From Planctomycetaceae bacterium (GTDB taxonomy: Bacteria; Planctomycetota; Planctomycetia; Pirellulales; UBA1268), in contig JBJTIV010000118.1 in the NCBI GenBank assembly GCA_046095145.1, forward strand, positions 1 to 37,431: a DNA stretch of 37,431 bases. Reading direction: 5' to 3'. This document shows positions 15,641-30,076 of this stretch, in pieces (position 1 is the stretch's first letter; every line of letters starts with the position of its first letter). The translations under genes and the position numbers were made by a program. Under the pieces are notes generated by a model, which was not told where the DNA came from, did not search any database, and worked only from the letters and a program-made list of their open reading frames with translations.

Positions 15641-15668
15641 CGTCACGGCTCGTACGTCACGGCTGTTA
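15641..15668. repeat. Tandem direct repeat, 2 x 14 nt (CGTCACGGCTCGTA / CGTCACGGCTGTTA)
   Basis: I read it directly. The 10-nt core is identical in both units. The second unit runs into the TATAGT hexamer in front of surE. Confidence 0.6.
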
Positions 15669-15672
15669 TAGT
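15667..15672 (+). promoter_or_regulatory. -10-like hexamer TATAGT, 8 nt upstream of the surE ATG (candidate leaderless promoter)
   Basis: It matches TATAAT at 5 of 6 positions, and its spacing to ATG 15681 fits a leaderless transcript. Confidence 0.35.
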
Positions 15673-15680
15673 GAGTGGCC

Positions 15681-16448
15681 ATGCTCATCCTGCTCACCAA
15701 CGACGACGGGATCTTCGCGCCGGGGCTCGCGGCCATGGAGCGGGCGCTCCGCCGGCTCGGCGACGTGCACGTGTCGGCGCCGGCCACCGAGCAGAGCGGC
15801 ATGGGCCATGCCATCACCTTCCTCACGCCGCTGACCGCGAAGGAGGTCTTCGACGGCGAGCGGCGCCGCGGCTGGGCGGTCGACGGCAGTCCGGCGGACG
15901 CCGTGAAGCTCGGCATCGCCGCCTTCTGCCCGCGCCGGCCCGACCTGGTCGTCAGCGGCATCAACAGCGGACTCAACGCCGGCATCAACGTGCTCTACTC
16001 GGGCACCGTGGCGGCGGCGATCGAGGGGGCGTTTTTCGGGATCACGAGCGTGGCGGTGTCGCTGGAGTGGGACGAGCACGCCGACTACGGGCGGGCCGCC
16101 GAGATCGGCCTCCACGTGATCGAGGGCCTGCTCGCCCGACGACCGGCCCGCGGCAGCCTGTTCAACGTGAACATCCCCACGCGGGCGCTCGAGGGCACGC
16201 CCCGGCTGCGGGTGGTGCCCATGAGCATCGCCCGCTACGGCGAGGCCTTCGAGCGGCGGACCGATCCCCGGGGCCGGTCCTACTGGTGGGCGACGAACGA
16301 GCCCGCCCCGCCGCCGTCGCCGCAGGAGTCGGACGTCACCGCCCTGGCGGCCGGCGACGTGACGCTCACGCCGCTCGACTACGACCTCACCCACCGGGCC
16401 GCGGTCGACGTGCTGGCCGAGGGACCCTGGGACATCGGCCGCGCCTGA
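15681..16448 (+). CDS. surE: 5'/3'-nucleotidase SurE
   Basis: MLILLTNDDGIFAPGL..., GINSGLNAG and YSGTVAAAIEG are SurE signatures. I prefer ATG 15681 over the GTG at 15675. Confidence 0.93.
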   Translation: MLILLTNDDGIFAPGLAAMERALRRLGDVHVSAPATEQSGMGHAITFLTPLTAKEVFDGERRRGWAVDGSPADAVKLGIAAFCPRRPDLVVSGINSGLNAGINVLYSGTVAAAIEGAFFGITSVAVSLEWDEHADYGRAAEIGLHVIEGLLARRPARGSLFNVNIPTRALEGTPRLRVVPMSIARYGEAFERRTDPRGRSYWWATNEPAPPPSPQESDVTALAAGDVTLTPLDYDLTHRAAVDVLAEGPWDIGRA

Positions 16449-16471
16449 CCAGGACGGCGGCCGGGGCGGGG

Positions 16472-17983
16472 CTACTCCGCGCGGTCTCGTCGCGCGGCGG
16501 CCTCCGCAGCGGCCGCCTTGGCCGCGGCGGCTTCCGGCGGCGCTTGCTGCGCGGACGGTCGACCCCGCGACGCCACGATGCCGACGCTGATCACCGTCGC
16601 GAGGCTTGCCACGGCCGCCGCGATCCACGTCCAGCGGGGCAGGCTGGCGATCCACCGCAGCGGGCCGCGCGGGCCGGGCTGCGCCGCAGGGGTGGTCGGC
16701 GACTGCACACTGATGACGCGGCCGGTCACGCCCGGCTTGGGACCCGGCAGCGAGGGCCGGATGCCGCTGCGTCCCGCGCCGGCCGTCGGCCCGAACACGT
16801 GCGAGCCCAGGCCGATGCCGGAACTCCCCGCCCGCTGGCCGCCGCCTGACGCGGGCGGCCGCGGCGGCGCGGGCCACACGCCCGAACCACCGGCCGACCC
16901 CGGCGCCCTGCGCGGCGGGCTCAGCGGGGCCGTGGCCTGTCCGGCGCCCGAGGCTCCCAGCCAGGCGCCCAGCACGTCGGCCACCTCGCGGGCGGTCTGG
17001 GGGCGGGCCGCCGGATGCTTCTCCAGCATCCGCGAATAGAGCTCCACGATCTGCGGCGGCAGGTCGGGCCGGTCGTCGAGCGGGTTCGGCCGGCTCTGCT
17101 TTTGATGGGCCAGGATCCGGTCGGCGAGCTTGCCGCCCGAGAAGGGCACCCTTCCCACGAGCAGGTAGTAGAGGGTGCAGCCCAGCGAGTAGATGTCGGA
17201 CCGGGCGTCGGCCTTGTGGCTGTCGACGGCCTGCTCGGGGGCGAGGTAGTCGGCCGTGCCCAGGATCCTCTCGTCGTACTCCTTCGTCAGCGACCCGTCG
17301 TCGTCCCCGGCGCCGGCGAGGGCCAGGCCGAAATCGAGGATCTTGACGACGCCGCGCCGGTCGAGGATCAGATTGGCGGGCTTGATGTCGCGGTGGATCA
17401 CGCCCTCCTCGTGCGCGTACTGCAGGCCCAGGGCCGCCTGACGCACGTAGTCGGCGGCGTCGCGGACGTCCAGCGGGCCTTCGCGCTTGACCTTGGCGTG
17501 GAGATCGATGCCCTCGATGTAATCCATCACGAAGTAGTGGATGGAGCCCGACGTGCCGCTGTCGGTGGCCCGGACGATGTTCGGATGGTCGCGGAGCCGG
17601 AAGGCCTCGCGGGCCTCCTGTTCGAAACGGGCGAGGTACGAGGTCTTCTCGACGTGCTTCACCGGCAGCACCTTGATCGCCACCTTGCCGTGGAGGTGGA
17701 CGTGCTCGGCGAGGTAGACGCTGCTCATGCCGCCGGCGCCGAGCAGCGTGAGGAGCCGGTAATTGCCGAGCGTGAAGCCCTTGTGCTTTCCCTTGCGGAG
17801 CTGGTCGACCTGCCACTGCGTGAGCAGCCCGCCGTCCACGACCGCCCGCACGAGCGCCTCGGGGAGCGGCTGGGAGCCGTCGGTCCACGCGGTGCATGCC
17901 GCCGCCAGCCGATCCTCGGCGACAAGGCCGCTCTTCCTCACGACGGCCAGGAAGTCGTCGATGGACTTGACGGGTTCGGCCAT
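16472..17983 (-). CDS. Membrane-anchored Ser/Thr protein kinase
   Basis: The Hanks kinase motifs GAGGMSSVY, AIKVL, HRDIKPANL, DFG and APE are present. A Pro/Gly-rich linker and a C-terminal TM segment (WIAAAVASLATVISVGIVA) follow. Confidence 0.92.
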   Translation of the reverse strand: MAEPVKSIDDFLAVVRKSGLVAEDRLAAACTAWTDGSQPLPEALVRAVVDGGLLTQWQVDQLRKGKHKGFTLGNYRLLTLLGAGGMSSVYLAEHVHLHGKVAIKVLPVKHVEKTSYLARFEQEAREAFRLRDHPNIVRATDSGTSGSIHYFVMDYIEGIDLHAKVKREGPLDVRDAADYVRQAALGLQYAHEEGVIHRDIKPANLILDRRGVVKILDFGLALAGAGDDDGSLTKEYDERILGTADYLAPEQAVDSHKADARSDIYSLGCTLYYLLVGRVPFSGGKLADRILAHQKQSRPNPLDDRPDLPPQIVELYSRMLEKHPAARPQTAREVADVLGAWLGASGAGQATAPLSPPRRAPGSAGGSGVWPAPPRPPASGGGQRAGSSGIGLGSHVFGPTAGAGRSGIRPSLPGPKPGVTGRVISVQSPTTPAAQPGPRGPLRWIASLPRWTWIAAAVASLATVISVGIVASRGRPSAQQAPPEAAAAKAAAAEAAARRDRAE

Positions 17984-17989
17984 GCGGCC

Positions 17990-17995
17990 ATGGTA
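17990..17995 (-). promoter_or_regulatory. -10-like hexamer TACCAT, 6 nt upstream of the kinase ATG (candidate leaderless promoter)
   Basis: It is a rare AT-containing hexamer with the same geometry as the ones in front of atpZ and surE. Confidence 0.25.
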
Positions 17996-18058
17996 CCAAG
18001 GGCCGTGCGGCGGCCGGCCGGGCGGGTGAAGGCCGGGGACGGCGTCGCCCGCGTGATG

Positions 18059-18595
18059 TCAGAGCCCGAGGTTCAGGCCGCGGTCGTGGAGAGCCGCGAT
18101 CAGGTCGGCCGCCGAGGTGAAGACCTCGGCGTCCCAGCCCGCGGCACGGGCGCCGGCCACGTGCTCCGGCAGGTCGTCGGTGAAAAAGATGCGCTCCGGG
18201 GCCACGCCGGCCGCCGTTGCGGCGGCGGCGAAGATGCGTTGGTCGGGCTTCGCCGCGCCCACCTGGAAGCTCAGCACGATTCGCGACACGGCGCCCGTGA
18301 GGCAGGCCCACCCGCCGGCTCGGAGGTGGTCCCAGTGGATGCCGCAGGTGTTGGAGAGGATGCCGAAGGGGCAGTGGATCCGCTCGAGCCCCGCGAGCAC
18401 GGGAATCATGTCGGGCTTGAGCGTGAACATGTCGCTCGCGGCGCGACCGAGCGCCGCAGGATCGCTGGTCGTGCCGGTCCGACGGCTGAACTCGGCGTGA
18501 AAGCCGGGCCAGTCGATGCGGCCGGCTTCGAGGTCGGCCTGGAGGCCGCCCGCCATGACCACCTCCTCGACGCGGCCGGCGGTCGCGCCCGACAC
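18059..18595 (-). pseudogene. YihX-like HAD-IA phosphatase body lacking its N-terminal catalytic motif I in this orientation
   Basis: Motif II (GILSNT), motif III (Lys in GAAKPDQRIF) and motif IV (FFTDD) are present, together with the cap region GRVEEVV...EAGRIDWPGFHAEF. The nucleophile motif DxG/DxV is missing. The frame has a TGA six codons upstream of the GTG at 18595. Confidence 0.8.
18572..18595. repeat. Left inverted repeat of the putative invertible segment
   Basis: Its reverse complement, GTGTCGGGCGCGACCGCCGGCCGC, matches 18732..18754 (GTGTCGGTCGCGACCGCGGCCGC) at 22 positions, with one mismatch and one 1-nt indel. Confidence 0.8.
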
Positions 18596-18731
18596 GGCAA
18601 GATAGTATCCTCACGCGGGGATTGGAAACCTCCGAAGCTGTATGGCCAGGCGTCCTGAATTCGTCTTCCTGGACCTCGGGAACGTGCTGTTCGCGTTCGA
18701 CCGGGCCCGGGCCTTCCGGCAGATGGCGGCG
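18596..18731. other. Putative invertible DNA segment (136 bp) carrying the HAD phosphatase start codon, motif I and upstream leader
   Basis: The segment is bounded by the 23/24-nt inverted repeats. Flipping it joins [30 protein letters not shown] in frame to VSGATAGRVEEVV... and yields a complete 208-aa HAD protein. Confidence 0.65.
18642..18731 (+). pseudogene. Detached 5' end of the HAD phosphatase gene (30 codons with motif I), currently in frame with ilvD
   Basis: [14 protein letters not shown] is the YihX-type motif I (compare E. coli YihX IFDLGNVIVDIDF). It continues through a 16-codon linker ([16 protein letters not shown]) into the ilvD ATG at 18780. Confidence 0.8.
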
Positions 18732-18754
18732 GTGTCGGTCGCGACCGCGGCCGC
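18732..18754. repeat. Right inverted repeat of the putative invertible segment
   Basis: See the entry for 18572..18595. It encodes VSVATAAA here, compared with VSGATAGR for the partner on the minus strand. Confidence 0.8.
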
Positions 18755-18779
18755 TCCCCAAGGACCGTCCCGGCCGCCC

Positions 18780-20462
18780 ATGACGACCCTCAATCGCACC
18801 AGCGCCCGCATCACGCAGCCGCGGTCGCAGGGCGCCTCGCAGGCGATGCTCCTCGGCACCGGCCTGCAGCCGGCCGACCTCGACAAGGCCCAGGTCGGCA
18901 TCGCGAGCATGTGGTACGAGGGCAATACGTGCAACATGCACCTCGACCGCCTGGCCGCGAAGGTCCGCGAGGGGGTGGTGGCGGCCGGCCTCGTGGGCAT
19001 GCGATTCAACACGATCGGCGTGAGCGACGGCATCTCCATGGGCACGGAGGGGATGAGCTACTCGCTGCCCTCCCGCGACGTCATCGCCGACTCGATCGAG
19101 ACGGTGATGCACGCCCAGTGGTACGACGCCCTGGTGGCGATCCCGGGCTGCGACAAGAACATGCCGGGCTGCCTGATCGCGATGGGCCGGCTCAACCGGC
19201 CCGCGCTCATGGTCTACGGCGGCACGATCAAGGCCGGCCACCTGGCCGACGGCACGCCGCTCGACATCGTGTCGGCGTTCCAGTGCTACGGCGAGTACGT
19301 GGCCGGCCGCATCGACGATGCCCGACGGGCCGACGTGGTCCGCCACGCCTGTCCCGGCGCCGGCGCCTGTGGCGGCATGTACACGGCCAACACCATGGCC
19401 ACCGCGATCGAGGCCCTGGGCATGGCCCTGCCCGACAGCGCGTCGATTCCCGCCGAACACCCCGACAAGCTCCAGGAATGCCTGCGGGCCGGCGCCGCCG
19501 CGCGGCACCTGCTCGAGCGTGATCTCAAGCCACGTGACATCATGACCCGGCGGGCCTTCGAGAACGCCATGGTGACCATCATGGCCCTGGGCGGCTCGAC
19601 GAACGCCGTGCTCCACCTCATCGCCATGGCCCGCGCCGTGGACGTCGATCTGGGGCCGGCGGACTTCCAGAAGACCGCGCGGCGCATCCCCTACCTCGCC
19701 GACCTCAAGCCCAGCGGGAAGTTCGTGCAGGAGAACCTGCACGCCGTCGGCGGCACGAGCGGCGTCATGAAGTACCTGCTGGACAAGGGTCTCATGGACG
19801 GCGACTGCCTGACCGTCACCGGCAAGACCCTGGCCGAGAACCTCGCCGCCCACGCGGGGCTGGCGGCGGGGCAGCAGGTGATCCGGCCGGTGGAGAACCC
19901 GATCAAGAAGACGGGCCACATCACGATCCTCCACGGCAACCTGGCGCCCGGCTCCGCGGTGGCGAAGATCACGGGCAAGGAGGGCTCGCGGTTCCGCGGC
20001 CCGGCCCGCGTGTTCGACAGCGAGGAGGCGATGCTCGCCGCGCTCGAGCAGGGAGGCATCCGCCGTGGCGACGTGGTCATCATCCGCTACGAGGGCCCGA
20101 AGGGCGGGCCGGGCATGCCGGAGATGCTCACCCCCACCTCGGCACTCGTGGGCGCGGGCCTGGGGGCCGACGTCGCCCTGATCACGGACGGTCGCTTCTC
20201 CGGCGGCTCCCACGGGTTCATCGTCGGTCACGTCGTGCCCGAGGCCCAGGACGGCGGGCCGATCGCCCTGGTGCGCGACGGCGACGTGGTGGTCATCGAC
20301 GCCGACGCGGCCACGCTCGACGCGGAGGTGGGGGCGGAGGAGTTCGCCCGCCGGCGGGCCTCGTGGAAGGCGCCCGCGTCGAAGGCGACCCGCGGCATCC
20401 TCGCCAAGTACATCCGCTGCGTGGCGCCGGCCTCGCGCGGGTGTGTGACCGACGAAGCCTGA
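18780..20462 (+). CDS. ilvD: Dihydroxy-acid dehydratase
   Basis: [29 protein letters not shown]..., [21 protein letters not shown] and the C-terminal [16 protein letters not shown] are collinear with the ~560-aa IlvD type. I take ATG 18780 as the native start, although the ORF is open from 18642. Confidence 0.93.
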
Positions 20463-20476
20463 CCGGGACAGCGAGC

Positions 20477-21664
20477 ATGCCCGTCCTCGACTGGATCAGC
20501 CGCCGCGTCTTCGACGCGGTGCACCGCAACAACCTGGTCTACAACACCTGCTGGGAGGATCCACGGCTCGATCGCGAGGCCCTGCGGCTCGGGCCCGCGG
20601 ACGACATCGTCGTGATCACGTCGGCGGGCTGCAACGCCCTCGACTACGCCCTCTGCGACCCCCACCACGTCCACGCGGTGGACATGAACCCGCGGCAGAA
20701 CGCGCTGCTCGACCTCAAGCAGGCCGGCATCCGGGGGCTCGACTTCGACGAGTTTTTCCGAATGTTCGGCGAGGGGCGGCTGCCGGGTGTGCGGCGCGTC
20801 TACCAGCAGAAGCTGCGCGGACTCCTGCCCGAGCCGTCGCGCGGCTTCTGGGACGCGAAGATCTCCTGGTTCGACAACCCGCGCTGCAGCTTCTATTTCC
20901 GCGGCACGTCGGGCCTGTTTGCGCGGATGGCGAAGGCCTACACCGACCGCGTGATCAAGGTCCGGCCGTACCTCGAGCAGCTCGTCGAGGCGCAGAGCGT
21001 GGAGGAGCAGCGGGAGATCTGGCAGCGGCACCTGCGGAACCGGTTCACCGGGCTGCTGCGGTTCGTGCTCAACCGCGACACGACGATGGCGTTGCTCGGC
21101 GTGCCCCTGGCGCAGCGCCGGCAGATCGAGGCCACCTATTCCGGCGACCTGGCCCGGTTCGTGCAGGAGTGCCTGCAGGGCGTGATCGCCGACCTGCCGA
21201 TGCGCGACAACTACTTCTGGCGGGTCTACATCAACGGCGCCTACGCGCCGGCCTGCTGCCCGGAATACCTCGTCGAGTCCAACTTCGACCGGCTGAAGGC
21301 GGGTCTCGTCGACCGCGTGACCACGCACACCGACTCGGTGCAGGGATTCCTCGAGAAGCACGATCGGCCGGTCAGCCGCTTCGTGCTCCTCGACCACATG
21401 GACTGGCTCCGCGACCGGTTCTTCCCGTTGCTCGAGAGCGAGTGGCAGGCGATCGTGGACCGGGCCGCTCCCGGGGCCCGGCTCATCTGGCGGAGCGGGG
21501 GCTTCAACAGCGATTTCGTGAAGGAGGTCCGCGTCACGGTGGACGGGCGGCAGCGGCTGGTGGGCGACCTGCTGGAGTTCGACGACGACCTGGCGAAGCG
21601 GCTCCACCCGCTCGACCGCGTCCACACCTACGGCTCGTTCACGATCGCACGGTTCAAGGGCTGA
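20477..21664 (+). CDS. BtaA-like (DUF3419) S-adenosylmethionine:diacylglycerol 3-amino-3-carboxypropyl transferase family protein
   Basis: The 395-aa protein shows LVYNTCWEDPRLDREAL, VITSAGCNALDY and DHMDWL, which match my recollection of the BtaA/DUF3419 family. It starts 14 nt after ilvD. Confidence 0.7.
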   Translation: MPVLDWISRRVFDAVHRNNLVYNTCWEDPRLDREALRLGPADDIVVITSAGCNALDYALCDPHHVHAVDMNPRQNALLDLKQAGIRGLDFDEFFRMFGEGRLPGVRRVYQQKLRGLLPEPSRGFWDAKISWFDNPRCSFYFRGTSGLFARMAKAYTDRVIKVRPYLEQLVEAQSVEEQREIWQRHLRNRFTGLLRFVLNRDTTMALLGVPLAQRRQIEATYSGDLARFVQECLQGVIADLPMRDNYFWRVYINGAYAPACCPEYLVESNFDRLKAGLVDRVTTHTDSVQGFLEKHDRPVSRFVLLDHMDWLRDRFFPLLESEWQAIVDRAAPGARLIWRSGGFNSDFVKEVRVTVDGRQRLVGDLLEFDDDLAKRLHPLDRVHTYGSFTIARFKG

Positions 21665-21841: not shown

Positions 21842-22750
21842 TTACCGCGAGCCCGGCACGGGGAGCGACTCGATCGGCACCGCCGGGCCCGGGGCGATGA
21901 CGGCCCCGGGAGGCAGTTGCTCCGGCGGGATCGGAACGCCGTAGACCGGACCGGGCGTGACCGCCGGCGCCGCCGCGGCCCCGGATGGCGCGACGCCGTC
22001 GGGGGGCTGGTAGTAGGGCTCCGGCTGCGCGAGCGGCGCCACGCCGAGCTTGGCCAACAGCCGTGAGAGCATCTTCTGTTCGAGGAGCGGGTCGCGGCCT
22101 TGGGGGATCCACCCCATGTTGGGCGTGGGCGCGGCCACGGGCCGCGGCTGGTCGCCCACCTGCTGGCCGAGCGTGGGCAGCGGCGTGCCGTAGCGGTAGA
22201 GCGAGTCGTCGTTGCGGAACGAGGCGCCGCCGGTCGTGGCCCGCATCGGGCGGGCGAGGTATTCGAGCTCCTTGTTCACCACCACCTCGATCCGCCAGCC
22301 GCCCGGGTCGGGGATGAGCCGCATGGTGCCGATCCGGCGGATCGACTGGAGCGTGGCCTCCCAGCGCTCGTCCCAGCCCACGGAGTCGCCGCGCCAGGGT
22401 TCGAGGATCGTGGCGCCGGTCTGCGGGAAGGTGTCGATGCGGCCCTCGGTCGGCACGCCACCGGAGAACACGACCCGCTGCTCGGAGTGGATCTTGAAGA
22501 AGTCGTCGCAGACGTCGACCATCTGCGTCCACACCTGTTCCGCGTCGAGCGCCGGGATCACCGCGGAGCTGCGGGGTACGGCCGGCAGCGGCGCCACCAC
22601 CGGGCCGGCCGGGCCGGGGACCGTGCCCTCGGGCAGCGGCACGAACGGGTTGGCCTGCGGGACCGCCGCGGGAGCCGGCAGGGGCTCCTGCGCGCGGCCC
22701 GTGACGGCGAGCGCCGCGAGCACGGTCACCAGGCTCGCCATCCGGGCCAT
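21842..22750 (-). CDS. Secreted hypothetical protein with Pro-rich termini
   Basis: The signal peptide is MARMASLVTVLAALAVTGRAQE. The central region has high GC3 and a globular composition. I recognise no family. Confidence 0.7.
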   Translation of the reverse strand: MARMASLVTVLAALAVTGRAQEPLPAPAAVPQANPFVPLPEGTVPGPAGPVVAPLPAVPRSSAVIPALDAEQVWTQMVDVCDDFFKIHSEQRVVFSGGVPTEGRIDTFPQTGATILEPWRGDSVGWDERWEATLQSIRRIGTMRLIPDPGGWRIEVVVNKELEYLARPMRATTGGASFRNDDSLYRYGTPLPTLGQQVGDQPRPVAAPTPNMGWIPQGRDPLLEQKMLSRLLAKLGVAPLAQPEPYYQPPDGVAPSGAAAAPAVTPGPVYGVPIPPEQLPPGAVIAPGPAVPIESLPVPGSR

Positions 22751-22852: not shown

Positions 22853-23527
22853 TCATTCGGCGGCCAGCCGGGCGGCGAGTTCCTCGAACCGCCGCGCGAA
22901 CCGGGCGTGGGAGGAGTGGACGTGCTCGCCCTGCGAGATCACGCGGAGCCGGTCGTCGCGGCCCAGGCCGCGGGCCCGGAGGATGCGCTCGAACGGCAGC
23001 CGCGACGGCGCGTAGACCACGAGCAGCTTGTGCTCGTCGAGCTGCACCTCCAGCGATGCCTCCGGATGCATCACGGCGATGCCGGTGCAGCCATCGTCGA
23101 GCAGCAGGTCCTCGAACTCCCACAGCAGGCTCTCGAGCACCAGCCGCTCGACGCCCTCCCGGGAGCGGGAGACGGTGCCGGCCGCCCCCTCGTGGGTCGA
23201 GTCCAGCACCACGTCGCAGGTGTCCCCGAGGGGCGCGAGCAGCTCGAGGAACGTCTCGAACAGCTCGTCCGCGGAGACGGCCGCCACGAGGGCGGGCAGC
23301 CGGGAGGCGCCGTGGGGATCGCTCCAGGCGTCGTGGCGGTAGCCGGCCCGGGGCACCACGTCGAGCCGCCAGCCCGGACGGATGGCGTCGGTGAGCGTGA
23401 AATCGCCGTAGCGGCGCCGGGCCATGTGGGCCGCGAACGCCTCGTCGTCGGGGAGCGTGATCGGATCCTCGGGCACGGACACGGCGCGGAGGATCGGGCT
23501 GCTGGAGGTCTCGTCGATGATGCGCAT
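22853..23527 (-). CDS. Hypothetical cytoplasmic protein (224 aa)
   Basis: I chose ATG 23527 ([10 protein letters not shown]...) because upstream the frame becomes antisense-like and overlaps the guaB 5' region. It has a coding-like composition and I recognise no family. Confidence 0.6.
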
Positions 23528-23672
23528 GGGTGGGTCGCGGGAGGTGGTGACGACTGCGGTCGGCGGCCGCGGGCTGCGATCCGCGGCGGACACCACAAGG
23601 GTAGGACACGGTTTCGCGCCGTGCGGGATCGCGCCACGGCGGCCGCGGAACCCCCGTCCGCCGCGGCGGTCG

Positions 23673-23702
23673 TTGCCCGCGGCCGGCGTCGCACCGCATA
23701 AT
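23673..23702 (+). promoter_or_regulatory. Candidate sigma70-type promoter for guaB (TTGCCC - 18 nt - CATAAT)
   Basis: Both hexamers were read directly. The -10 element ends 30 nt before ATG 23733. Confidence 0.3.
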
Positions 23703-23732
23703 CCGTGGTTTTTCGCCCCGGGGACGCCGTGC

Positions 23733-25196
23733 ATGGACGGGAAAATCGTTGCGACCGGCATCACCTTCGACGACGTCCTCCTGCTCCCGCGCCGGTCGGC
23801 CGTCGTGCCGACCGAGGTGGACGTCGCCACCCGGCTGACGCGGAACATCGGGCTCAACATCCCGGTCGTCAGCTCGCCGATGGACACCGTCACCGAGAGC
23901 GAGATGGCCATCGCGCTGGCCCAGGAGGGCGGCCTCGGGGTGATCCACAAGAACCTGCCGGTCGAGCGGCAGGCCGAGGAAGTCGACAAGGTCAAGCGGA
24001 GCGCCAACGGGATCATCATGGATCCCGTCACGCTCCCGCCGTCCGCCACCGTGGCCCGGGCCCGCGAGGTGATGGATCAGCACAACATCTCGGGCGTGCC
24101 GATCACCACCGAGGGCCGCCGGCTCGCGGGCATCATCACCCGCCGCGACCTGCGCTTTCTCGACAGCGGCGAGACGCCCATCGCGGAGATCATGACGAAG
24201 TCGGGCCTCGTCACCGCCACCGGCACCGTCTCGCTCGACGAGGCCGAGAAGATCCTCATGGCCAACAAGGTGGAGAAGCTCCTGCTCGTCGACGCGCGGG
24301 GGCTGCTCACCGGCCTGATCACGATCAAGGACATCGACATGATGAAGCGGTTCCCCAACGCCTGTAAGGACCGGCAGGGCCGGCTGCGGGTGGGGGCCGC
24401 GGTCGGCGTGTTCGACGAGGAGCGGGCGGAGAGCCTCATCGCCAAGGGGGTCGACGTGCTCGTGGTCGACAGCGCCCACGGCCACTCGGCGAACGTCATC
24501 GACACCGTCGTGGCGATCAAGCGACGCTGGGAGATCGAGGTGGTTGCGGGGAACGTGGCAACCCGGGAAGGCTGTCGGGATCTCATCGCGGCCGGTGCGG
24601 ATGGAGTCAAAGTTGGGATCGGTCCCGGGTCGATCTGTACGACACGGGTCATCTCCGGCGTGGGCGTGCCCCAGATCACGGCGGTCTGGGACGCGGCGCA
24701 GGAGGCGGCTCGCGCCGGCGTGCCGGTCATCGCCGACGGAGGCATCCGCTACTCGGGAGACATCACCAAGGCGATCGCCGCGGGCGCCCACTGCTGCATG
24801 ATCGGTGGGCTGCTGGCAGGCGTCGCGGAAAGCCCGGGGCAGACGGTCCTCTACCAGGGCCGCACCTTCAAGGCCTACCGCGGCATGGGATCGCTCGGGG
24901 CGATGGTCCAGGGCTCGAGCGAGCGCTATCGGCAGGGCGGACGCGGCGGCGACAAGCTGGTTCCGGAGGGAGTCGAGGGTCGGGTGCCCTTCAAGGGGCC
25001 ACTGAGCATGTTCGTCTACCAGCTCGTGGGCGGCCTGCGGGCCGGCATGGGCTACTGCGGCACGCGGACCATCGAGGAACTCCGCAACGACTCGCGGTTC
25101 ATCCAGGTTTCGGCGGCCGCCGTGAGGGAGAGCCATCCGCATGACATCGCCATCACCCACGAGGCGCCGAACTACTCCGCGGCGGAGCATCCGTGA
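23733..25196 (+). CDS. guaB: IMP dehydrogenase
   Basis: [10 protein letters not shown], a CBS pair insert, the catalytic loop [11 protein letters not shown] and GGIRYSGD support the call. The protein is 487 aa. Confidence 0.95.
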
Positions 25197-25923
25197 GCCG
25201 GGCGGCGGCCGCACGGCGGCCGCCATCGCGGCGGCGCTGATCGCGCTGGCCGCCCTGCCGGCCGTCGCGGGCTGGCGCGACCTGCAGCGGAGCGAGCCCC
25301 CGCCCCCGGTCGTGCCGGAGACCGCCGCGGCGACGCTCCCGGTCGCCGGCGCCGAGCCGGTCGCGGACGAGGGCAGTGACGGAGCCGCCGCGCTGATCCT
25401 GCCCGCCGCGGTGGAGACGCCGGCCGACGACGAGTCGACCGACGCCTGCGCCGAGGAGGCGGCCGACTGCCGGGCGGCGCTCGAGAAGCTGCGTGCCGAT
25501 TCGCTCGCCGGCATCGACCTCGACATCCGCGTGGGTGGCCGTCCGGGCAACGACTATCCCTACGAATGCCGGCTCGAGGGGGAGACCTTCGAGCCCCGCC
25601 GCTTCGCCACGACGACCTTCACGTGGAAGGCGGCCGGCTACTGCCACAAGCCGCTCTACTTCGAGCACTGGAACCTCGAGCGCTACGGCCACTCGCACGG
25701 CTTCGTGGCGGACTCGTTCCTGTCGGCGGCCCACTTCTTCGCGCGGATCCCCGCCCTGCCCTACCAGATGGGCGTGGAGCTGCCGTGGGAGTGCGTCTAC
25801 CCGCTCGGCTATTACCGCCCCGGCAGCTGCGCCCCGTGGACGGTGCCTGCCGTCCCCGTCAGCGCCCGCGGCTTCGCCGTCGGAGCGGCGGCCGCCACCG
25901 GCATCGTCTTTCTGCTGCCGTGA
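25141..25923 (+). CDS. Membrane-anchored or secreted hypothetical protein with a Cys/aromatic-rich C-terminal domain
   Basis: It has an N-terminal hydrophobic anchor ([19 protein letters not shown]), an acidic low-complexity linker, and then YPYECRLE...[24 protein letters not shown]...[16 protein letters not shown]. The start at 25141 overlaps the guaB end by 56 nt and is uncertain. Confidence 0.6.
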
Positions 25924-26624: not shown

Positions 26625-28184
26625 TCAGGGCCGCGCCGCCCGCCGCTCCGGCGGCGGCGCGACGAGGTCGATCTCGCGGGCCACCCGGTCGATCGCGGTG
26701 GTGAGCTCGCGGCCCTGGCTCACGATCGCGGCCTCGGCGTCCCGGAGGGCCCGCCTGATCCTGTCGAGTTCCCGCTGCAGGGCGGCGGCGAGATCGCCGG
26801 CAGCCCCCACGTCGCGCCGCCGGGATGCGAGGTCGCGCTCGAGTTCCCCGGCGACCTTCCGCTCGTCCTCCGTGTTGGCGACGGCCGCCTTGCGGGCGGT
26901 GCGCAGCTGCTCGTTGGACCGCTCCAGGGCGGCGATCTCGGCGCGGATCAGCCTCACGAGGGCGGGGGTGCCCGTGGTCGCGACGCCGTCGGCGCTCGCG
27001 CCGCCGTGGAGGATCATCATGGCGTCGGTGAGCGGCCGCCGGCGGAACACCCGCTCGATGGTCGCCACGTCGTCGCGATCACGGAGTTCGACGGCGGTCT
27101 GCAGGTCGAACGTGGCCCGATCACCGGGGGCGTACTGGGGCTCCGTCGGGCCCTCCGAGCCGGCCGCCTCCGCGGCGGCGTCGGACTCGGCGTCGGGGAC
27201 CGCGGCTTCGGCCTTGGGAGCCGGCCGCGCGTCGCCGCCGCCCAGCGAGAAGGGCTTCGTGAACGTGACCTCCGCCCAGAGCGTGCCCGGCTCCTCGGCC
27301 GCCTGCTGTTCCGCCCGCTCCCACTCGTCCTTCGGCACGTCCTGCTCGTGCTGCTCGAACGTCTCCACGAACCGCTGCACGAGCTGCTTCACCTCCGTCG
27401 AACTCTCCAGCAACTCGCGGACCTTCCCGGCGTCGTCCTTGACGGCCTCGGGCAGCACTCCCCGCTCGTCGTCGGCGGCCAGCTCGGGCGAGCTGTAGAA
27501 GGCGAGCCAGCGGTCGACCGGAAGATCCTCGAACACGATCACCGAGTCGTGCGGCAGCGCCAGCACCTTCGCGTCGTACTCGTCGCGCGGGGCCGTCTGC
27601 ACGACCGTGAGGATGTGGCGTTTCGTCGCCTCGTCGAAACCGGTCTTCTCGATCCGGAATTCGCCGATGTAGGCGCCCCCCTCCTCGAACGGGATCGAGT
27701 CGAAGAGGAAGACGAGGGATCCGGCGTGGAGCGGAGGTGAATCCGCGGTGTTCGTCTGTTCGGCCAGCGCGACCGTGCCGGTCGACGTGTCGTCCTTCGG
27801 CGGCTGGAACGAGGCGTTCTGCCAGATGCGACCACGCCAGGTGTCGATCCGATCCAGCCCGCGTCGCCAGCGGTCGCGCCGGTCGCGGAGGCGGGCGAGC
27901 GAGTTCGGGCCCTCCTCCCAGCCCGCAGAACGCGGATCGGGCGTGCGGTCGTGCTCGGCCTTCGCCAGCCGCGCCTCCAGATCGTCGATCTTCTGCTTCC
28001 AGGCCCGATCCCGCTGCGCGATGCGGGCTGCCAGATAGAGGAACGTCGCGGCCGAGAGGAGCACGAGGAAGCCGGCGACGACCGTGCCGATGCTCCAGCG
28101 CCGGTGGCCGAGTCCCAGCGCCACCAGGCCGCCGAGCAGGACCAGCGCCACCGTCGCCAGCACGAGGATGTCGACGATCTGCAT
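26625..28184 (-). CDS. Two-TM hypothetical protein with a long coiled-coil/acidic C-terminal region (519 aa)
   Basis: ATG 28184 ([25 protein letters not shown]) begins two adjacent TM helices. Upstream of it the track ORF is Arg/Pro junk. Coiled-coil-like segments occur at both ends ([15 protein letters not shown]; [19 protein letters not shown]). Confidence 0.65.
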
Positions 28185-28227
28185 GGGCCCGTCCCGCGGT
28201 CCGCCGTGATCCGCTCCCGGCTCGCGG

Positions 28228-28233
28228 AGTATA
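28228..28233 (-). promoter_or_regulatory. -10-like hexamer TATACT upstream of the 519-aa hypothetical gene
   Basis: This AGTATA site lies 43 nt upstream of ATG 28184. Confidence 0.35.
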
Positions 28234-28549
28234 TCGCTGGCACCCGGTGTTCCGGGAATCTTCGGATCGACGTGGTCGCCCGCGTGAGGCCGCCGCCGGC
28301 CGGCGGCGCAGCCTTCCGTCGCATCCGGGCGACGCGGGGGTCGCGGCGCGTCGCCCGCCGGCGACGCGGTCTGGTCCGGTCGTGACGGTGCCGCGGGAGG
28401 CGGCAGGCGCACCCCGCGACTCCGGCGGTTTTCCACGCTCCGCCGCGGTGCGGCATCGGAAATGCCCTGTGGTCGAGCCCCGGTCCGGCGGCAACGCCCG
28501 AGCCCCGTCGCCCCCGATCCCGCGCTCGTCACCTGAGGAGTCAGCAGCC

Positions 28550-30076
28550 ATGGTCCGCGTCGCCACGCCCCCCGTCCGCGGAGCCACCCGCAGCCGCCGC
28601 CCGACGGCGGTGATCGATGATCCGATCCGTCTCTACCTGGCGCAGATGGGTGGCATTCCGCTGCTGGATCGCGCCGGCGAGGTCAGGCACTCGCGGCGGA
28701 TCGAGCACTGGCGCCGCCGCTTCCGCCGCACGCTGCTTGCCAACGACTTCGTGCTCGCCGGCGCGGTCGCCCTGCTGGAGAAGGTCCAGGCCGGCACCGT
28801 CCGGCTCGACCGCACGATCGAGGTCTCCGTGACCAACACCCGCGAGAAGCGGCGCATCCTCCGCCGGCTCGCCCCCAACCTGGCCACCCTGCGCCGCCTC
28901 CAGGACGAGAAGGCGCGGCTGTTCCGCGTCGCCATGTCGCGGAGCACGCCCGACGAGCGGCGGCGCGAGGCCTGGCGGCGGCTCGTCCGGCAGCGGAACA
29001 AGGCGGTGCGGCTCGTCGAGGAGATGCAGCTGCGGATCCAGCGGCTCTATCCGCTGCTCAAGGAGCTGCGGGGCCGGGCACGGCACCTCGACGAACTCCG
29101 GGCCCTGGCGGCCGCGGCCGGCGGCGACCCGCAGCGGCGGCGGGCGCTCGCGGTGGAGCAGCGGCGGATCCTGCTGGCCGCCCGCGAGAGCCGCCGCACG
29201 CTGGCCCGGCGGCTGGCGCTGCTCGACGACCTGCAGGGCCGGTACGACGCCGCGAAGCGGGACCTCGCCGAGGGCAACCTGCGGCTGGTGATCTCGATCG
29301 CGAAGCGCTACCGCAACCGCGGCCTGTCGTTCCTCGACCTCATCCAGGAGGGCAACTCCGGCCTGATGCGGGCAGTCGACAAGTTCGAGCACGCCCGCGG
29401 CTTCAAGTTCTCCACGTACGCCACGTGGTGGATCCGGCAGGCGATCACCCGTGCCATCGCCGACCAGAGCCGCACCATCCGCGTGCCGGTGCACATGGTG
29501 GACACCATGACGAAGATGCGCAACCTCGCCCGCGACATGCAGCAGGAACTCGGCCGCGAGGCGACCGTCGAGGAACTCGCGGCCCGGTCCGGCGTCAGCC
29601 TCGCCGACGCGGAGTGCGTGTGGCGGATGTCGCGGCGGCCCACGTCGCTCGACCAGCCGGTGGGTGAGGGCGACGAGGCGGTCACGGGAGACTTCGTGCG
29701 CGACCACCGGGAGGAGGACGCTTTGGCCGACGTCAACCGGCAGTCGCTCAAGTCGTCGATCGCCAAGGCGCTCGCCGGCCTGTCGTTCCGGGAGCGCGAG
29801 ATCATCCGCCTGCGGTTCGGCCTGGCCGACGGCTATGCCTACACGCTCGAGGAGGTGGGCACGATCTTCGACGTGACGCGGGAGCGGGTCCGGCAGATCG
29901 AGGCCAAGGCCGTGGAGAAACTCCGCGAGCCGGGCCTCGACGTGGACCTCGCCGGCTTCGTCGACGACGGGCTCGTGGAGCGGGCGCGGGCCGCCGCCCT
30001 GCTGCGGGCGGAGCGCTCGTCGCGACCGAGGGTCGCGGCGACCGTCGAGCCCGAACTGGCCGGCGCGACCCCCTGA
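28550..30076 (+). CDS. RpoD-like sigma-70 factor with a long Arg-rich spacer between regions 1.2 and 2
   Basis: GAGGAG lies 9 nt before ATG 28550. Region 1.2 is [16 protein letters not shown], region 2 is [57 protein letters not shown], and region 4 is [23 protein letters not shown]. Confidence 0.92.

Follow-up and report, generated by a model that had tools for sequence, protein, structure and literature searches.

In the non-coding DNA of plastids, hairpin-associated small inversions arise by flip-flop of a loop held between short inverted-repeat stems, and these inversions are usually recurrent. Schofield, Agbunag and Miller reportedly described, in 1992 (Genetics 132:295), E. coli lac inversions at short inverted repeats. 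PMC4272514 cites Schofield et al. 1992 for inversions at short inverted repeats, and inversions at short inverted microhomologies form an established replication-linked class, of the U-turn-like or template-switch kind (PMC4417113). Programmed inversions are frequent, take place at inverted repeats and are catalysed by a recombinase that is usually encoded nearby; screens for them start from repeat seeds of at least 20 nt, and some invertible regions have no recombinase close by (PMC9881135). Invertons of the partial intergenic type are widespread (Chanin et al., 10.1101/2023.03.11.532203). Here we analyze a 136-bp segment lying between ilvD, which encodes dihydroxy-acid dehydratase, and a phosphatase gene of the HAD superfamily on a 37,431-nt contig of 73% G+C, entered in GenBank as "MAG: Planctomycetaceae bacterium" (MAG, metagenome-assembled genome). 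This whole contig is called the window throughout. In it the segment stands reversed relative to all related sequences.

We favor the view, at a probability of roughly 0.55, that the segment records a genuine, recent and non-programmed micro-inversion between short inverted repeats, made by a single enzyme-independent exchange. The plastid inversions share with this locus a small segment between short repeats that is found in either orientation among close relatives and needs no dedicated enzyme, but the present case is bacterial, was seen once and covers a gene start. With the spontaneous short-repeat inversions of E. coli lac and of PMC4417113 the locus shares a short imperfect repeat that holds the breakpoints, an exact core of 7-10 nt, a conservative outcome, no associated recombinase and a single occurrence in one lineage. 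The U-turn events described in organelles are shorter than 50 bp (PMC4417113), whereas the change here is a complete two-junction inversion of 136 bp, the mechanism of which is read from its anatomy only. Partial intergenic invertons (10.1101/2023.03.11.532203; PMC9881135) resemble the locus in that one arm of the repeat lies in coding sequence, that a flip alters both the gene product and the orientation of the promoter and that two orientations occur within a species. They differ in that the present locus has no nearby recombinase, its repeat is unconserved and too short and imperfect for the published criteria, and its flipped state was found once, with no alternative cassette or second functional allele, so that one of the two states breaks the gene. 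Gene-disrupting micro-inversions at short inverted repeats form a class already known; as the evidence stands, this locus is a curiosity rather than a new system.

The reversed segment and the split phosphatase gene

The features on which the argument turns are these.

18596..18731, no strand assigned: the inverted segment, 136 bp, reversed relative to all relatives; breakpoints resolvable only to the inner part of the arms
18572..18598, no strand assigned: the repeat's left arm (gcggccggcggtcgcgcccgacacggc), which as read on the minus strand contains HAD codons 31-38 (VSGATAGR)
18729..18754, no strand assigned: right arm of the inverted repeat (gcggtgtcggtcgcgaccgcggccgc), within the ilvD leader
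18059..18595, minus strand: body of the HAD-IA phosphatase gene with motifs II-IV, 178 codons from a GTG start, without the catalytic motif I
18642..18731, plus strand: first 30 HAD codons, displaced to the ilvD strand and continuous in frame with ilvD; includes the nucleophile DLGNV of motif I
18732..18779, plus strand: 16-codon bridge, the native ilvD leader, through which the frame of the displaced HAD codons runs on into the ATG of ilvD
18780..20462, plus strand: ilvD, dihydroxy-acid dehydratase, 560 aa, Pfam ILVD_EDD_N and ILV_EDD_C, native start at 18780
18596..18641, no strand assigned: conserved block of the divergent intergenic region, on the flipped segment; conserved columns in an alignment of 11 relatives

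The window was compared with about 20 related contigs from JGI, ENA, NCBI and Logan that range from 81% to 99% protein identity. All of them are uninverted and carry ilvD, an 85-nt spacer and an intact HAD gene. Four conspecific contigs, L026-L029 (runs SRR32903066, SRR32903069, SRR32903071 and SRR32903067), aligned to the actual window in three pieces, the middle one reversed; when the segment of the window was flipped back, the same contigs aligned without a gap over 1.1-1.6 kb, at a nucleotide identity of 98.4-98.5%, and L001 likewise gave 0 gaps. In blastn comparisons with L002, L011, L015, L016 and L019 both flanks were collinear with the window and only positions 18596-18733, approximately, lay on the opposite strand. 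The collinear flanks together with the gapless flipped-back alignments show a clean, conservative inversion of 136 bp, with no bases gained or lost, inside a correctly joined contig. The uninverted arrangement is the ancestral and general state.

The body of the HAD gene is GenBank protein MFM9024362.1, annotated as a 178-aa "HAD-IA family hydrolase". Its open reading frame (ORF) has an in-frame TGA at 18611-18613, six codons above the GTG at 18593-18595, which lies inside the left arm and is now the apparent start. Against the Pfam Hydrolase profile PF00702 the 178-aa remnant matches profile positions 92-191 only, and hence motif I is missing from it. The displaced 30-codon piece sits 47 nt from this ORF on the opposite strand; its residues match, exactly or almost exactly, the N-termini of the proteins P0242 and P0241 and of those encoded by L001-L029, and they align to motif I of PDB 2i6x, 4dcc and YihX. 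Flipping 18596..18731 in silico gave a single uninterrupted ORF of 208 aa that covers PF00702 positions 4-191, and only after this flip do motif I and motifs II-IV stand in one collinear polypeptide. The restored ORF has full-length homologues at 97, 95, 94 and 91% identity, is identical at 206 of 208 positions to P0242 (a protein present on five Logan contigs) and, over residues 8-185, which span the junction, aligns to PDB 2i6x, 4dcc and YihX (2b0c, 8pno).

The restored protein passes the cut-off of TIGR01509 (NCBIfam HAD-SF-IA-v3; 38.9 bits against 29.4) and fails that of NF006991, the YihX glucose-1-phosphatase equivalog (42.8 bits against 295). We predict it to be a phosphatase of the HAD superfamily, subfamily IA. 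With the YihX/BT-type "FDLGxV" group of HAD-IA proteins (2i6x, 4dcc, 2b0c, 8pno) it shares the DLGNV motif I and motifs II-IV; it differs in scoring below the YihX equivalog cut-off and in that its gene is split in this contig. An earlier note on this DNA had called the motif I piece "YihX-type", a label that, by these profile and structure alignments, suits motif I and the fold but does not extend to function. That note had also described a HAD ORF lacking motif I with a TGA six codons upstream, a motif I piece at 18642..18731 reading through 16 codons into the ilvD ATG at 18780, and the recreation, by recombination within a repeat at the junctions, of a 208-aa HAD protein divergent from ilvD. 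The first of these is confirmed by the sequence and by the PF00702 match, the second was recovered as stated, and the third was reproduced by the in silico flip, the orthologues being at 97-99% identity. Its proposal of a DNA inversion is borne out by the gap-free alignment of the conspecific contigs to the flipped-back sequence.

The inversion separates motif I, with its 30 codons, from motifs II-IV and leaves a 178-codon remnant that starts at an incidental GTG. This split probably inactivates the phosphatase. The same inversion joins ilvD in frame to 30 codons of HAD and the 16 codons of the leader. By a rough estimate such an in-frame read-through would arise by chance about 1 time in 3 or 4 in DNA of 73% G+C and does not point to design. 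Taking the longest ORF as ilvD (18642-20462, 606 aa) is misleading, as both the annotation (protein P0243, 560 aa) and the homologues support the start at 18780. The GenBank record of the remnant calls for some caution in annotation, since it lists as an ordinary hydrolase a protein that lacks the catalytic nucleophile.

The intergenic block carried by the segment is the only AT-rich piece in surroundings of 73% G+C. It contains GGCAAGATAGTATCC, with the AT-rich box at 18601-18609, and GGGGATTGGAAACC at 18617-18630, and follows the pattern (GTCGCGR)...GGCARRATAGTAT(CC)...GGGWTTGGAAAC, which is conserved in relatives down to 81% protein identity. The block is probably a shared promoter or operator/5' untranslated region, judging from these conserved columns. 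A scan for strict sigma-70 consensus sequences found none, so the case for a promoter role of the AT-rich box is one of conservation only; a terminator scan also found none. In the window the AT-rich promoter block would now face the opposite way.

The inverted repeat and the site of exchange

The reverse complement of 18572..18595 is GTGTCGGGCGCGACCGCCGGCCGC and 18732..18754 reads GTGTCGGTCGCGACCGCGGCCGC; the two differ by one mismatch and one 1-nt indel, in agreement with the 23/24-nt inverted repeat previously claimed for the junctions. A 3-nt inward extension, which in the window has an additional mismatch at 18731, brings the imperfect repeat to 26/27 nt overall. A repeat search gave an ungapped core of 20 nt (18579-18598 with 18729-18748) that is 90% complementary (18/20). 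Nowhere else in the 37-kb window do inverted arms separated by 20-300 nt match at 18 or more of 20 positions. The repeat by itself is not beyond chance, because first-order Markov simulations yield 0-1 repeats of that quality per window. The coincidence of both alignment-defined breakpoints with the two arms is far beyond chance.

In the conspecific contigs the ilvD-side arm (as its reverse complement) reads GCCGTGTCGG, T, CGCGACCGC, gap, GGCCGC and the arm in HAD codons 30-38 reads GCCGTGTCGG, G, CGCGACCGC, C, GGCCGC, giving exact runs of 10, 9 and 6 nt in that order. In the window the arms match exactly over 9 nt at most (CGCGACCGC), and the innermost run is only 7 nt. The G (in a Gly codon) and the extra C stay on the HAD-body side in the window, and the T and the shorter form stay on the ilvD side. 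Given that these arm-distinguishing variants were kept with the outer flanks, the exchange was confined to the inner 7-10 nt, CCGACAC(GGC). Within the 136-nt segment the window differs from L029 at 3 positions. At 18731 it carries a C-to-G change (GCC to GCG, synonymous) that is private to the window, lies 1 nt from the inferred breakpoint and falls in the core that is 10 nt exact in every close relative.

Complementarity over the first 20 nt of the arms is 19 in the conspecifics, 17 in L001, L002 and L025, 15 in L007-L010, and 7-11, which is background, in L003-L006, L016, L019 and L023 (81-88% protein identity). Substitutions strike either arm without compensation (L002, L025). The repeat is lineage-specific and decays with divergence, while the genes, the 85-nt spacing and the intergenic block remain conserved. 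Of the two things that the earlier note would have had compared in related genomes, an intact HAD orthologue was present in all of the roughly 20 contigs, and a conserved repeat in the ilvD leader was not found, the distant relatives having the 7-11 matches in 20 given above. An Rfam search of 18000-19200 at E of 1 or below returned no match, and nothing else supported the arms or the leader being a structured RNA of a known family. The fold of the DNA at 18560-18770 is unremarkable (z = -1.1); the arms nonetheless pair in the minimum-energy structure.

Occurrence and origin of the flipped state

The flipped state is recognized by junctions of the HAD body (18571 or lower) to GGCAAGATAGTATCC and of CAGATGGCGGCG to the ilvD leader (18755 or higher), and the normal state by junctions of the HAD body to CGCCGCCATCTGCCGG and of GGATACTATCTTGCC to the ilvD leader. 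Among the best 120 HAD homologues the sole truncated one was the window's own protein. A search with the full 606-aa ORF found a HAD N-terminus or extension on 0 of the 120 best ilvD homologues, all of which are 557-566 aa long; a search with the 97-aa N-terminus of the HAD-ilvD fusion, in which only short proteins were among the candidates, returned only short ilvD fragments at 67% coverage or less. No contig besides the window came up when the 178-aa remnant was looked up by exact match. Scans of genome and metagenome collections with the degenerate pattern GGCARRATAGTATN9GGGWTTG added only L016, L019 and L023 as new members of the locus, all in normal orientation, and whatever else matched the pattern did so by chance, in low-G+C organisms. 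One contig, the window, shows the flipped state, against about 20 normal contigs, and the flip is therefore sporadic and lineage-private.

Two unrelated sequences were matched by this 29-nt pattern, one in L013, L018 and L020 (Mucilaginibacter and related) and the other in L014, L017, L021 and L022 (Roseburia-like). Each recurs nearly identically in several assemblies; they are chance matches to the pattern, yet conserved repeated elements.

Could the locus be a programmed switch? The earlier note had read it in this way, as an on/off device. On such a reading the segment would be a reversible partial-intergenic or gene-altering inverton served by an invertase encoded elsewhere, turning the HAD gene on and off and exchanging the promoters and leader of ilvD, and the MAG would have been caught in the OFF state. 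In its anatomy the locus suits an inverton: inverted repeats enclose a short segment with a promoter-like block and the start of a gene. The flip keeps both reading frames, and the HAD remnant shows no decay. Both orientations occur within the species (window against L026-L029, 98.5% nucleotide identity) with the breakpoints in the repeats, although the flipped state comes from one contig; intra-species variation with breakpoints in repeats is the criterion of Milman et al. (PMC9881135). The exact core, however, is only 10 nt, and that screen, with its 20-nt seed, would pass over these arms. None of the roughly 20 related contigs is flipped, and the four conspecific contigs run uninterrupted through both arms; their assembly graphs were thus not split by a competing orientation. 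To our knowledge, neither a housekeeping phosphatase nor ilvD is a typical target of phase variation. A Pfam scan of about 30 ORFs of the window, which reaches 18 kb to each side, found housekeeping families and no resolvase, invertase, integrase or transposase; the absence of an invertase or recombinase gene from the window had been noted before and stands. The on/off-switch reading is not supported, because the repeat is lineage-specific, no relative is flipped (0 of about 20 contigs, and 0 of 120 ilvD homologues) and the window has no recombinase. We consider a reversible inverton of this kind improbable. Slightly more improbable still is a true phase-variable, partial-intergenic planctomycete inverton that works through a distant invertase or a recombinase-independent route at a repeat only recently arisen in the species, with the HAD gene off and the HAD and ilvD promoters and leaders exchanged.

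An artefact deserves more serious consideration, though it too seems unlikely to us. The organism would then have the normal orientation, and the flipped segment would have entered the consensus of a low-coverage MAG contig either from strand-switch (fold-back) chimeras that arose at the repeat while the library was prepared or amplified, or through a mistake of the assembler or polisher. It fits this explanation that the flipped state is confined to a single MAG contig and that every other assembly, conspecifics included, is uninverted; the HAD remnant shows no decay, and the flip looks harmful in splitting an enzyme and disturbing the promoter of ilvD. Chimeric reads for which inverted repeats serve as template have been documented as an artefact of sequencing libraries (PMC10908179 and, for long reads, PMC12870357). 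However, the unexpected calls that stem from such artefacts are described in PMC10908179 as having low variant allele frequency and should lose to the true path. Two independent chimeric junctions would be needed here, each beating the true one. The arms, moreover, share at most 10 exact nt, far under assembler k-mers (21 or more), so that a de Bruijn graph is unlikely to have gone backwards through the segment and reads with both novel junctions must exist. Fold-back assembly artefacts usually take the form of contig ends composed of X+rc(X). Unlike these, the inversion here is clean and internal, and the sequence is collinear for 18 kb to its left and to its right.

Of two specific forms of assembly error, a mis-join of the contig at the repeat is rejected, since both flanks are collinear with five relatives (L002, L011, L015, L016 and L019), and a mis-traversal of the de Bruijn graph is unlikely, as it would take an exact shared stretch of at least 21 nt, where the conspecifics have 10 nt and the window 9 nt. 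The earlier note had allowed for a fixed rearrangement or a mis-assembly instead of a switch, and it is to these that the evidence points, with a large-scale mis-join excluded by the collinear flanks.

We return to the non-programmed micro-inversion. Three features of a spontaneous inversion were found: both junctions lie inside short inverted homology, the change is conservative and its occurrence is sporadic. The ancestor would have had ilvD and the gene of the 208-aa HAD-IA phosphatase diverging from an intergenic region of about 85 nt, as in the sampled relatives. The lineage would have happened to carry the imperfect inverted repeat of 26/27 nt, with its arms in the ilvD leader and in HAD codons 30-38, and one exchange in the inner 7-10 nt of the arms would have reversed the 136 bp between them, most plausibly through replication template switching or illegitimate recombination at short inverted repeats. 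Following the exchange the former HAD-side promoter would drive ilvD, either giving it a longer leader or yielding a fusion protein that is longer by 46 residues at its N-terminus, and the former ilvD-side promoter would drive the HAD remnant. Upstream promoter context would be largely kept, because the arms supply nearly the same 24 nt beside the block in either orientation. With the repeat surviving, reversion would be formally possible; nothing points to catalyzed or frequent reversion.

The HAD remnant differs from the conspecific genes by 6 synonymous and 2 non-synonymous changes and has no stop codons or frameshifts. No pseudogene decay that could date the event was seen in it, which argues that the event was recent.

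Several points weigh against this reading. The inverted junctions are known from the consensus of one MAG contig only, and spontaneous exchange on a core of 7-10 nt happens rarely. ilvD is an essential biosynthetic gene; the flip disturbs its promoter region, and selection against the flip might be expected. The lack of decay in the HAD remnant suits an artefact or a reversible switch equally well. The C-to-G change at 18731 may be ordinary divergence or may be a mark of the inversion event, and a micro-inversion leaves it unexplained.

If the inversion is real, a fortuitous repeat with a 10-nt exact core broke a gene and rewired a divergent promoter pair in one step. If both orientations were to coexist in one population, inverton-type regulation would be extended to Planctomycetota and to genes of central metabolism.

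Neighboring genes

By Pfam assignment the gene order of the window is GuaA, SurE, Ser/Thr kinase (Pkinase) and HAD on one side of the intergenic region and ilvD and DUF3419 on the other, and the order is the same in the relatives. This G+C-rich contig contains long spurious antisense ORFs, such as a 1521-aa minus-strand ORF (15666-20231) that runs over the kinase, HAD and ilvD genes. Two ORFs, 21842-22750 (minus strand) and 25141-25923 (plus strand), have coding-like G+C at third codon positions (GC3) and no Pfam match. The same holds for 26625-28532 and 22853-24049, both on the minus strand, which overlap a sigma-70 family ORF (27737-30076) and an IMPDH ORF (23424-25196), respectively, on the opposite strand and may be shadow ORFs. 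The sigma-70 family ORF (27737-30076, plus strand) is 779 aa as called, and its regions 1.2, 2, 3 and 4 begin only at residue 295; either the protein has a long N-terminal extension or the true start lies further downstream.

In the window (20462-20500) and in the relatives that carry P0021, L016 included, ilvD abuts DUF3419. In L003 (77-1165) and L004 (107-1195) a gene that is absent from those contigs, encoding a 362-aa AhpC/TSA-thioredoxin fusion, lies between the two.

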